From: Candidatus Marinacidobacterales bacterium
GTDB lineage: Bacteria > Acidobacteriota > Vicinamibacteria > Marinacidobacterales > SMYC01
Reading direction: 5' to 3'
DNA: 64,000 nucleotides
Assembly: GCA_965237955.1 (NCBI GenBank)
Contig: OZ250169.1
Span: 1,696,001 to 1,760,000, forward strand
Shown: one piece after another, positions 1 through 46,726 of the stretch
Layout of the letters: each line of letters begins with the position of its first letter
Position numbering within the stretch: position 1 is the first letter of the stretch
The notes under the pieces: generated by a model
What the model was told of the DNA's origin: nothing
Database searches by the model: none
What the model saw: the letters and a program-made list of their open reading frames with translations, nothing else
Position numbers and translations under genes: made by a program

Positions 1-1
1 C

Positions 2-697
2 GTGAAAAACGTCGCCGGCTACGAGCTCATGAAGCTCTTCGTCGGCTCGTCGGGCACGCTCGCGGTGATGACGCGAGCGTTTCTGAGACTGCGCGCGCTC
101 CCGGAGGAGACACGGACCGTCGCGCGTCGATTTTGGCGGTCGTCCGAGGCGGAGCGGGCGTGGCGTGAGCTTCGCGAGCTCCCTCATCCTCCCGAAGTGG
201 CCGCGCTTTTGAACCCGAGCGCCGCGGACGCATTGGACTTGGAAGGGTGGAATCTATTGCTGCGGTTCGAAGGCTTGAGCGAAGAAGTTCAGGGCGCCGT
301 CTCGAGAGCCGGAGGCGAACCAGTGAGCTCGCCGCCCTGGGACGAGATTCGTGACTTTCCCCTGGGTGCGAGTGCGTTGGTGCTGCGCGGTCAAGTCGCT
401 CCTGCGCGCACGTTCCATCTCGCGGAAAGCTGGCAGGATGGCGGACCGCTGGTGGCGTATCCGGATGCCGGCCTCGTCTATAGCCACACACGGGATCCCG
501 ACGCGCTCGCCGATCGTCAGGAGCGGGCGGACGCCCAACGCGGAGGCGTCGTGCTCGAGCGAGCGCCGAGCGAGCTCAAGAAAGATCTCGATGTATTCGG
601 CGAGACTCCAGGCGGTTTCGAGTTGATGCAGAAAATCAAAGAAAAACTGGACCCGAAGGGTATTCTGTCTCCAGGCCGCTTCGTCGGCAGAATTTGA
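2..697 (+). CDS. glcE: Glycolate oxidase FAD-binding subunit, 5'-truncated by window edge
   Basis: KNVAGYELMKLFVGSSGTLAV motif and C-terminal KLDPKGILSPGRF; stop overlaps glcF start (TGATG). Confidence 0.85.
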   Translation: MKNVAGYELMKLFVGSSGTLAVMTRAFLRLRALPEETRTVARRFWRSSEAERAWRELRELPHPPEVAALLNPSAADALDLEGWNLLLRFEGLSEEVQGAVSRAGGEPVSSPPWDEIRDFPLGASALVLRGQVAPARTFHLAESWQDGGPLVAYPDAGLVYSHTRDPDALADRQERADAQRGGVVLERAPSELKKDLDVFGETPGGFELMQKIKEKLDPKGILSPGRFVGRI

Positions 698-1950
698 TGA
701 ACATGATCGAGAGCCACGAGAGCCTGTACCAGAAAACGCTCGCTTGCGTTCACTGAGGCTTGTGCTTGCCGGCGTGTCCGGCGTACGAGGTCCACCCGAG
801 GGAATCGCTCGCCCCGCGCGGTCAGGTGTACAACGTGCGCGCGGTCTTGGAGGGACGACTTCCGATGACCGCAGGCCTCGCGAGCGAGTTCTACGATTGC
901 CTCGCGTGCCGCGGCTGCGAGTCGGTGTGCCCTGCGGGCGTTCCTGTCGGGAACATTATGGAAGAAGCCCGCGGGCTCATGACTCAAGCAAAGACGGAAG
1001 GCGCCCTCTTTCGCTGGGCGAAGAGGTTCTTGCTCTCCGGAGTTCTTGCCCACCCGCGACGGCTCGCGCTGTTCATGACCTTCGCACGCTGGGGGGACGC
1101 GCTCGGCCTGCGTCGGCTCGTCTCCGCTGTCTCACCCGCACTCGGCGAGCGCGCCGCGCTCTTGCCGGCGGTGACCAAGACCCGTTCGCTGCCGGAGCAT
1201 TTCGATCCAATAGGTGAACCACGAAAGCGCGTCGCGCTCTTCGCGGGCTGCATCGCGTCGTATCTGTTTGCCGACGTCAACGAAACGACCGCGCGCGTGC
1301 TGCAACGCAATGGCTACGAAGTCGTCGTTCCCAAAGAGCAGGTGTGCTGCGGCGCCCTTCATCTTCACAATGGCCTTCCGGACACCGGCCGAAAGCTTGC
1401 GGCCAAGAACATTGATGCGTTCAAGGGCGTGGACGCGATCGTGGTGAACGCTGCCGGATGCGGTGCTGCGCTTTCAGAGTATGGGGAGCTCCTGGAGTCG
1501 AATCCAAACGCAAAATCGTTTGCCGCGCGTGTCGTCGACATTTCCGCGTTCCTCGTGCGCGAGGGGTTCGACGCACCGGATGCGGCTCCCGCGAGAGAGA
1601 AGCTGCGCGTTGCCTACGACGCACCGTGCCATCTTTTCCATGCTCAAGGGGTGAAGAGCGAGCCGCGCGAGCTCCTCGCGACAATCCCCGGCGTCGAGCT
1701 CGTCGATTACCGCGACTCCGAGCGCTGTTGCGGGAGCGCGGGCATCTACAACGTCACACATTACGACATGTCGATGGAAGTGCTCGAGAGGAAGATGAAA
1801 GACATCGTCCCCGCGAGGCCGGACATCATCGCAACCGGAAACCCAGGCTGTCACATGCAGCTGTCGGAGGGTGTGAGACGCGCGATGCTGAAAGCGGAAG
1901 TGGTGCACCCCGTGGTGCTGCTGGATCGAGCCTACCAATCGGAGCGCTAA
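697..1950 (+). CDS. glcF: Glycolate oxidase Fe-S subunit (GlcF/GlpC family) with in-frame TGA at 754-756, probable selenocysteine
   Basis: ATG at 697 reads MNMIESHESLYQKTLACVH*GLCLPACP in frame with ORF 760..1950; second cluster motif CLACRGCESVCP; two CCG domains (VCCGAL, RCCGSAG). Confidence 0.85.
759..789 (+). promoter_or_regulatory. SECIS-like hairpin immediately downstream of the in-frame UGA
   Basis: CUUGUGC-UU bulge-GCCGG-loop CGUGU-CCGGC-GUACGAG; apical loop starts 16 nt after UGA and has G at loop position 2. Confidence 0.6.
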
Positions 1951-44539: not shown

Positions 44540-46726
44540 TCACGGTCTAAGCTTCGCTGCACGCCGCTTCAGATGAAGCACAGGCTCCGTATAGCCGTTC
44601 TCGGCAACGCGACCCTTGAATACCAAATCCAACGCTGCTTGGAATTCGACGCTGCCGTCGAAATCAGGCGCCATGTTCCTGTACAGAGGATCCCCCGAGT
44701 TCTGATCGTCGACAATGGCCGCCATTCTTTTCATGCTTTCTATGACTTGCCGCTTGGTCGTAACACCGTGATGCAGCCAGTTTGCGACATGTTGGCTTGA
44801 GATGCGCAAAGTAGCGCGGTCCTCCATCAACGCAGTGTCGTTGATATCGGGCACCTTGGAACACCCCACACCCTGACCGACCCATCGCACGACGTATCCA
44901 AGAATACCCTGGAGATTGTTATCGAGCTCTTTCTGAATCTCATCCTCGTCAAGTTCTCGATCAACTAGCAAAGGCATCGTCAAGATGTCATCGAGGCTCG
45001 CCCGGCCACGATTCTTGAGCTCTTCCTGACGAGCAAGCACGTCCACTCGGTGATAGTGAATAGCGTGTAGCGTGGCCGCTGTCGGCGAAGGCACCCACGC
45101 TGTATTCGCGCCGGATGTAGGATGCTCAATCTTGGCACGCATCATGGCCGCCATCTCATCGGGCATGGCCCACATGCCTTTTCCGATCTGCGCAGAACCA
45201 GGTAATCCAGTCTCTATGCCGATGTCTACGTTCCAATTTTCGTAAGCCGCAATCCAGGGTGCGCCCTTGATCTCGGCCTTCGGCAACATTGGACCTGCCT
45301 CCATGCCGGTGTGTATTTCATCGGCCGTGCGATCGAGGAAACCCGTGTTGATGAAGATCACTCTATTCTTGGCAGCGCGAATGCTTTCTTTGAGGTTCAC
45401 CGTCGTTCGCCGCTCCTCGTCCATGATTCCAAGCTTCACCGTGTTGCGTGACAACCAGAGCGCATCTTCCACCATTGAGAAAAGCTCAGCCGTAAATTCG
45501 ACTTCTTGAGGACCATGCAATTTTGGCTTGACGATGTAGATACTTCCCTTGGTTCTGCTGTTGTCCACGTTGCCGGTTCTCTCGATATCATGTTTCGCTA
45601 TAAGCGCCGACACAATGGCGTCGAGAATTCCCTCGGGAATCTCTGCACCATCCGAGGTGGTGACCGCATCCGTATACATATGGAGGCCGACATTTCGCAC
45701 CAGCAGCAAACTTCTCCCCGGCACCGTCATTACCTCGCCGGTAGGTGCAACAAACTGCCTGTCCGGATTCATGCTGCGTGTCACACGAGAGCCGGCTTTC
45801 TCGAAGCTGGCTTCCAAATCGCCCTTCATCAAACCGAGCCAGTTTCTGTAGACCAAGACCTTGTCCGGCGCATCGACGGCCGCGATGGAATCTTCGAAGT
45901 CCTGAATCGTGGTGATGGCGGCTTCGAGCAGGACATCCTTGATGTCGGCCGGATCGGTTCTGCCGACGGGATGCGCGGGATCGAGCTGAATCTCGATGTG
46001 GAGGCCGTTGTTCTTCAACAATATGGCGGAGAGTGAGCCCTCGTCTTCGCTGTAGCCCACGAACTGCGATGGATCCTCGAGCCCCGTGGTGCCGCCATTT
46101 CGCAACGACGCGCACAACACTTTCCTCGCCGCCGAGCCGTTCAATGAGAAGCCCGTCACGTCGGCGTACTTTGCGCCCCTGAGCCCGACGGACTCGTCGA
46201 GGAACTCTTTGGTGTAGGCAATGACTTTGTTGCCACGGACCGGATTGAACGCGGTTCCTCGTTCAGCTCCACCCGTATCGGGAATCGCGTCGGTGCCATA
46301 CAGCGCGTCATACAAACTGCCCCAGCGGGCATTGGCGGCATTCAGGGCGTAGCGTGCGATTTGTACGGGAACGACGAGTTGCGGCCCTGGGATTCTGGTG
46401 ATCTCTTCATCCACATTGTCGACGCTCACCTTGAAATCCGGACCTTCAGGGACCAGGTATCCAATCTTCTCTAGGAAACGCTTTTGCTCCTCGACATCGA
46501 TAGGCTGCCCTCGGCGCTCGCGGTTCCAAGCGTCGATTTCCTGCTGCAGCGCGTCACGGCGGTCCAACAGGGCTCGGTTCTTCGGGGCGAGGCGATCTAT
46601 GATGGCGGCAAGGGATTGCCAGAATTGATCCGCGACAATTCCGGTTCCTGGGGCTATCTCGTTCTCGACCAACCCGAACAGCGATGCGTCGATTTTCAAG
46701 CCCGCTTTGTCGACGGTGGCGGTCAT
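44540..46726 (-). CDS. glcB: Malate synthase G
   Basis: [61 protein letters not shown]. Confidence 0.97.

Follow-up and report, generated by a model that had tools for sequence, protein, structure and literature searches.

A GlcF-like iron–sulfur subunit of Vicinamibacteria with a predicted selenocysteine at a [4Fe–4S] ligand position

Most known selenocysteine (Sec) residues either take part in thiol-redox catalysis or coordinate Mo, W or Ni. Several described proteins come close to the gene analysed here. The GlcF subunit of GlcDEF enzymes (NF008434, COG0247) shares with it the domain order, the eight-Cys dicluster, the two CCG domains and the gene order glcD-glcE-glcF; the gene here departs from that family by a TGA, predicted to encode Sec, at the second ligand of the first motif, and by a score below the family cut-off. 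Within the same dicluster-plus-CCG superfamily, the available text of earlier surveys presents a GlpC-like protein (WP_174406253.1, COG0247) as a predicted selenoprotein (PMC1794560, PMC13188914) from hdrA-frhD operons of Deltaproteobacteria (PMC1794560, PMC9312934), but its Sec lies in NTEUGH in the first CCG domain and its ferredoxin motif is all Cys. The FDH3 beta subunit in Table S2 of the deep-Sep study (PMC12013277) resembles our gene in having C-x-H-U at the second Cys (SCMHUADAPCIAVCP), but it belongs to the HybA family and is a single case, for which the accessible part of that paper reports no TGA homologues, and it is absent from Table 1 of a 2026 review (PMC13188914). The RnfB-like selenoprotein PRK07118/NF005503, in the partial descriptions available, also has a predicted Sec at a Cys of an Fe–S motif (GAQUGGCGFAGC), but this is the first Cys of a different, non-ferredoxin motif in a subunit of an electron-transport complex. 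SdhB/FrdB, HdrC-HdrB and EtfD (9OJN) match in fold and cluster-binding pattern, but have all-Cys ligands and different partners.

GlcF is absent from the 119 selenoprotein families in Table 1 of that review, whose accessible text treats proteins that differ in the position of Sec as separate subfamilies (PMC13188914). The accessible portions of PMC10779653 and 10.1101/2022.07.06.499078 contain no case of Sec binding a cubane, and the deep-Sep supplements contain no CVHUG, glycolate or GlcF. Across the literature searched, as far as its available text goes, Sec-bound cubanes appear only as predictions or in a synthetic peptide, and solved Sec residues near Fe–S clusters are non-ligands. The same literature, with few subscription papers and without bioRxiv supplements, held no report of Sec in GlcF; GenBank records bearing U are not findable by identity, and an annotation of a Sec-GlcF may already exist. 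Sec-GlcF would be a new selenoprotein subfamily, while predicted Sec ligands to Fe–S clusters were already known elsewhere.

The window, by which we mean the whole stretch of 64,000 nucleotides analysed, opens within a glcE-like gene (Table 1). The stop codon of this gene (TGA 695–697) is overlapped by the glcF ATG (697–699), the start of a frame that begins MNMIESHESLYQKTLACVH-TGA-GLCLPACP and then runs uninterrupted to TAA 1948–1950; the table-11 ORF list places the glcF start at TTG 760, so that both the translational coupling and the late ORF start described in the initial annotation were confirmed. The read-through protein consists of an N-terminal 2×[4Fe–4S] dicluster domain and two CCG domains. 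Among 24 NCBIfam models compared, its best match is GlcF NF008434 (250.4 bits, short of the curated cut-off of 333), and its partners likewise fall below their NCBIfam cut-offs (GlcD 503 bits against 568, GlcE 140 against 284). The order glcD-glcE-glcF is found at all 8 long TGA loci. The nearest other glcF homologue in the same genome is only 27% identical, and the lack of a close Cys paralogue would tie 2-hydroxy-acid oxidation to the supply of selenium. The first motif is missing from 25 of the 120 best database homologues (including 11 of the top 14), some of which may be short for other reasons; gene callers cut glcF short, and the annotation of such genes can now be corrected.

Table 1. 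Positions of the glc genes, their motifs and related features (window coordinates unless a locus is named)
Feature	Position	Strand	Remarks
glcE-like gene, 3' part	1..697	+	Stop overlaps glcF start
glcE and glcD upstream of the window	L057:9495-10697 (glcE start), L057:8062-9504 (glcD)		
glcF-like gene	697..1950	+	417 codons if TGA = Sec
First ferredoxin-type motif	745..777	+	C17 745-747, U20, C23 763-765, C27 775-777
In-frame TGA, codon 20, predicted Sec	754..756	+	Second Cys of C17-x2-U20-x2-C23-x3-C27-P
Predicted SECIS-like hairpin	757..793	+	Upper stem 768-772/778-782, loop CGUGU 773-777
Second ferredoxin-type motif	898..930	+	C68-x2-C71-x2-C74-x3-C78-P, all Cys
Malate synthase	44540..46726	-	728 aa, G-type length; context, outside the glc operon
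Distant GlcF	L079:279-1574	-	
Trx7/PDZ-like gene	L079:1-264	-	

GlpC-type selenoproteins had been offered as a precedent for this gene. A selenoprotein of that type has indeed been reported, but the comparison fails at the position of the Sec: the Sec of NTEUGH corresponds by eye to C255 here, in a sequence AAGCGA that carries Cys, so that the UGH-motif Sec is absent. The neighbours of our gene are glcD and glcE, and a glpC-hdrA-frhD-frhG-frhA operon is not seen. With its Sec in a CCG domain rather than in the ferredoxin motif, the GlpC-like protein represents a different subfamily and not a direct precedent.

The column of codon 20 is an invariant Cys in 117 other full-length homologues (alignment A1), and together with the reading frame this bears out the original proposal that the TGA replaces exactly the second Cys of CxxCxxCxxxCP. 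A structural model with Cys in place of Sec (pLDDT 95.3) matches SdhB/FrdB over residues 1–110, HdrB and LutA over residues 177–417, and EtfD (9OJN) over its whole length (Z 23.3, rmsd 3.5, 356 residues aligned). C17/U20/C23/C27 align with C149/C152/C155/C159 of Escherichia coli SdhB, and U20 also with the matching Cys of FrdB. We take C149, C152 and C155 of SdhB to bind a [4Fe–4S] cluster, and since U20 aligns with C152 it would ligate cluster 1. The putative arrangement has C17, U20, C23 and C78 holding cluster 1 and C68, C71, C74 and C27 holding cluster 2, with selenium bound to one iron of the first [4Fe–4S] cluster. Provided that the UGA is read as Sec, it is highly probable that the Sec is an iron ligand.

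Sec could instead be inserted without binding iron, leaving a [3Fe–4S] cluster beside a free, redox-active selenol. In [3Fe–4S] sites it is the Cys at the second motif position that is absent, and motif 2 of SdhB lacks its second position in the alignment with glcF. According to the accessible text of two reports, Sec197 of HdrA, near a cluster, forms a selenylsulfide and is not a ligand (PMC13518236), and Sec19 of BamF, near a [2Fe–2S] cluster, is not a ligand either (10.64898/2026.04.10.717634). Against a non-ligand role stand the invariant Cys of the column in homologues with a complete eight-Cys pattern, the reversion to Cys in close kin, and the lack of a spare Cys at hand for a selenylsulfide, and we consider this arrangement unlikely.

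With Sec as an iron ligand, a role in protecting the cluster suggests itself. When such clusters are oxidized, the iron at the second Cys is the first to be given up. A gene for heme-copper oxidase subunit I is present in the genome, and Sec might keep or restore the labile iron in an oxygen-respiring cell, which we favour over a large change in potential. In the accessible text of a peptide study, a Sec-for-Cys peptide still forms a [4Fe–4S] cluster, with a potential of −476 versus −471 mV (a shift of ∼5 mV; the substitution is at the first Cys position; PMC10946529), and it is this small change that leads us to prefer protection of the labile iron to tuning of its potential. Such protection has perhaps an even chance of being the actual role.

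By analogy with the family, electrons would pass from the GlcD flavin to the dicluster, from there to the clusters of the CCG domains and on to the respiratory chain, and the glyoxylate produced would feed malate synthase. Isocitrate lyase was not found in the genome (98% complete); malate synthase without isocitrate lyase needs a source of glyoxylate, which favours glycolate as the substrate, and close homologues carry the JGI name glycolate oxidase Fe–S subunit. Judged from sequence, the enzyme is likely to be a GlcDEF-type dehydrogenase, with glycolate, of which we are less sure, as its main substrate. The same Sec-ligated protein might oxidize d-lactate or another 2-hydroxy acid in place of glycolate. 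GlcDEF enzymes with d-lactate activity are known from Pseudomonas, the sub-threshold scores of GlcD, GlcE and GlcF mean that the substrate is not fixed, and glyoxylate carboligase did not reach its cut-off in the genome; still, the best models are GlcD, GlcE and GlcF, and these, the JGI names and the need for glyoxylate make another substrate quite improbable. All parts taken together, a GlcF subunit whose UGA is read as Sec by means of the hairpin, with the Sec on the first [4Fe–4S] cluster and glycolate as the likely substrate, is in our judgement the probable reading of the locus.

For decoding, SelB–tRNA(Sec) would bind the hairpin and insert Sec at codon 20. A search for selA, selB, selC and selD, called for in the initial annotation, found the Sec machinery complete: SelA (E 1e-134), SelB (366 bits, cut-off 242), SelD (275 bits, cut-off 125) and a single tRNA-Sec with a UCA anticodon, which is the one UCA tRNA called by ARAGORN at its default threshold. 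SelD is of the Cys type and lies at L013 (G000:C1:4040942-4041856) in an open frame of 750 codons, likely a fusion protein. Among the family relatives SelA was found in 18/18 and tRNA-Sec in 17/18, and when relatives including those with Cys-type GlcF are counted each was found in 58 of 61. Since Cys-type relatives keep the machinery, the alternation of TGA and Cys is not due to its loss; as they are also widespread, Sec is dispensable for function.

A coding-score scan of the genome gave 1,298 read-through candidates, from which 20 were hand-picked by motif; in 15 of these 20 the TGA coincides with a selenoprotein site already known and is covered by a family match (two FdhA, five peroxiredoxin-type, TlpA-like, DsbA, two deiodinase-like, AhpD/CMD, DsrE, DUF3179 and ArsC-like). 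Three of the other selenoprotein-type genes have a similar pentaloop and one an identical CGUGU. The UGA might be read as Cys by a SelB-type tRNA(ReC) using the same hairpin, giving an ordinary protein, and in the accessible text of one report tRNA(ReC) genes are described from genomes in which UGA codons stand at metal-ligand positions (PMC13582414). Here one SelB and one tRNA-Sec-like gene exceed the cut-offs, by general models that are not specific for tRNA(ReC), and with the single UCA tRNA this makes such decoding very improbable. Unusual tRNA calls by ARAGORN were considered as candidates for a second reader of UGA and dismissed. One of the tRNA-like genes, called Cys(ACA) (G000:C1:1295353-1295426, minus strand), combines a G3-U70 pair and ends resembling those of tmRNA with a poorly formed anticodon stem; the genome encodes a tmRNA elsewhere, at 2167633-2167982.

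The predicted fold downstream of the TGA agrees with the hairpin first described (a U bulge, a G in the apical loop and 16 nt between UGA and loop): the upper stem is GCCGG/CCGGC, the loop follows the UGA after 16 nt and has G at position 2, and the bulge consists of two U (766–767), or of one if U767 pairs with G783. The bSECIS model, as given in the accessible text of its description, allows a loop of 3–9 nt, an upper stem of 4–16 bp and a spacing of 16–37 nt, with G within the first two loop positions and an MFE of at most −7.5 (PMC13188914). The loop of 5, stem of 5–6, G at position 2, spacing of 16 and −17.1 kcal/mol found here lie within it, in line with the SECIS-like geometry noted originally, though a loose version of the model is unspecific, fitting 68% of 20,000 random TGAs of the same genome. 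Under a tighter version 2% of the random TGAs fit, as do the glcF site and 10 of the 15 further selenoprotein genes. Folding energy was discarded as evidence for the hairpin, with z-scores near 0 and not above chance (−0.82 for 757–800; +0.32, +0.06 and +0.78 for three other cuts).

What lifts the hairpin above chance is that, among relatives, it is conserved along with the TGA. All 18 TGA rows of the clade have, at the fixed 16-nt spacing, a G-U loop on a stem of 5 pairs or longer; so does one of the 20 Cys rows, a likely reversion, but none of the 3 stray TGA rows, kin rows being non-independent samples; the chance of such a stem is 0.031 per gene under the codon usage of the genome. This count omits 5 non-GlcF matches as well as 8 Acidobacteriota exact-pattern loci and L070, L075 and L076, whose sequences are already represented in it. 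The hairpin sits in conserved coding sequence, and all 18 clade TGA rows use YTG CCG GCG TGY CCG. A 4-pair stem bearing the identical loop occurs in 3 of the 8 Cys rows of the sister family f3, which means that the TGA is not required for part of the hairpin. Covariation is confined to one pair in one sequence, the distant GlcF L079, in whose hairpin a C-G pair is replaced by U-A through changes in both strands of the stem; 46 of 500 shuffles reach the same. From the TGA column, the hairpin and the machinery we hold it very likely that the UGA at codon 20 is read as Sec.

The genome search matched 55 of 61 genomes. A TGA was found in 10 of the 19 same-family genomes (our own included), exactly one inside each match and all ten in the identical alignment column, and none was found in the matches of the 36 other-family genomes. 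An exact-pattern scan of 185,579 genomes gave 12 matches (8 Acidobacteriota GlcF, with open frames of 397–406 codons behind the TGA, 2 distant GlcF and 2 non-GlcF) and the 16 matches from metagenomes comprised 11 from this clade, L079, a stray GlcF and 3 non-GlcF; these sets overlap and their counts are not additive. When 401 genomes of the class were searched with the N-terminal 118 aa, TGA occurred only in family f1 among the 150 matches listed, with 79 more beyond these. The TGA clade belongs to the Acidobacteriota, class Vicinamibacteria, and two of its records are Candidatus Marinacidobacterales. The alternation of TGA and Cys at codon 20 with a conserved hairpin, as the initial annotation had anticipated among relatives, was thus found, and its Sec-containing Fe–S subunit truncated by ORF callers is supported, iron ligation and substrate being inferred.

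Positions 754–756 are covered by contigs of four runs from four studies, with no change (and hence no TGC or TGT) among the differences listed; the comparison used assembled contigs instead of raw reads, with 39 weaker rows beyond those listed, and the window itself may stem from one of the runs. The TGA is not an error. A nonsense mutation or assembly error, with glcF a pseudogene or restarting at TTG 760, is very improbable and largely refuted: stray column-20 TGAs without the hairpin do exist (L058, L061, L077), but the same TGA recurs in proteins as little as 67% identical, whose frames are intact beyond it, the four runs agree, a restart would lose two cluster 1 ligands, and the only other homologue in the genome is the one at 27% identity. 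The genomes of L058 and L061, whose completeness is not given, had no match for SelA or tRNA-Sec, which fits a low background of nonsense changes. At window position 1285 (codon 197) the window has A, encoding Thr, and the contigs of all four runs have G, encoding Ala, the homologue consensus; this is either a strain difference or an assembly substitution error. The initial annotation took the other apparent errors in the window to be indels; the difference at 1285 is a substitution.

Two quick trees were used for the history of the site. After masking of the Sec/Cys column, the family's TGA rows group in a single branch (SH-aLRT 87, inner branch 94), which in a smaller tree has a support of 48; the trees are weakly in favour of one origin within the family. 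L031 (G012) has TGC yet keeps the whole hairpin and is nested among TGA forms of the same genus, and P0003 and P0004, Cys by their protein-level database entries, are nested in the TGA branch. All three are likely Sec-to-Cys reversions, that of L031 recent. The distant GlcF of L079, at 39% identity, shares the TGA column, the loop and its spacing. Its placement in one clade with the other TGA rows was rejected (p-AU 2e-53) and its nearest database relatives carry Cys, so that this single contig likely records a second origin of Sec in GlcF. Neither glcD nor glcE was found within the 3 kb of the contig analysed, and the gene after glcF begins like a Trx7/PDZ selenoprotein, with two close TGAs. 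On these data Sec would have arisen from Cys in one branch of the family, with at least one reversion, and a second time in an unrelated GlcF.

Close Cys/Sec pairs of the same genus (L031 versus L028–L030 and L032) make the role of selenium in an electron-relay cluster testable. We put at about even the wider proposition that this is a natural, conserved selenolate-ligated [4Fe–4S] cubane, belonging to a dehydrogenase of central carbon metabolism in bacteria that respire oxygen, and that it evolved two or more times at the same, most labile iron of GlcF (with C-x-H-U once in an FDH beta subunit), in which Sec would be a recurring protection of electron-relay clusters and the same-genus Cys revertants would serve as built-in controls.

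A loose CxxUxxCxxxCP pattern matched 193 of 401 genomes of the phylum, but the listed matches resemble out-of-frame chance matches and therefore say nothing on other Sec ferredoxins. Two metagenomic non-GlcF sequences (L080, L081) carry a ferredoxin-like CIH-TGA-G-x-C-x3-CP with 66–79 open codons behind it and no clear hairpin, and may reflect either Sec or nonsense. The genome itself is rich in selenoprotein genes (L086–L105), with at least 15 besides glcF, among them ArsC-like three times and one peroxiredoxin twice. L086 and L099, with SPT-TGA-xxC, thioredoxin-like by eye and without a Pfam or NCBIfam match, may be selenoproteins that existing models do not describe.
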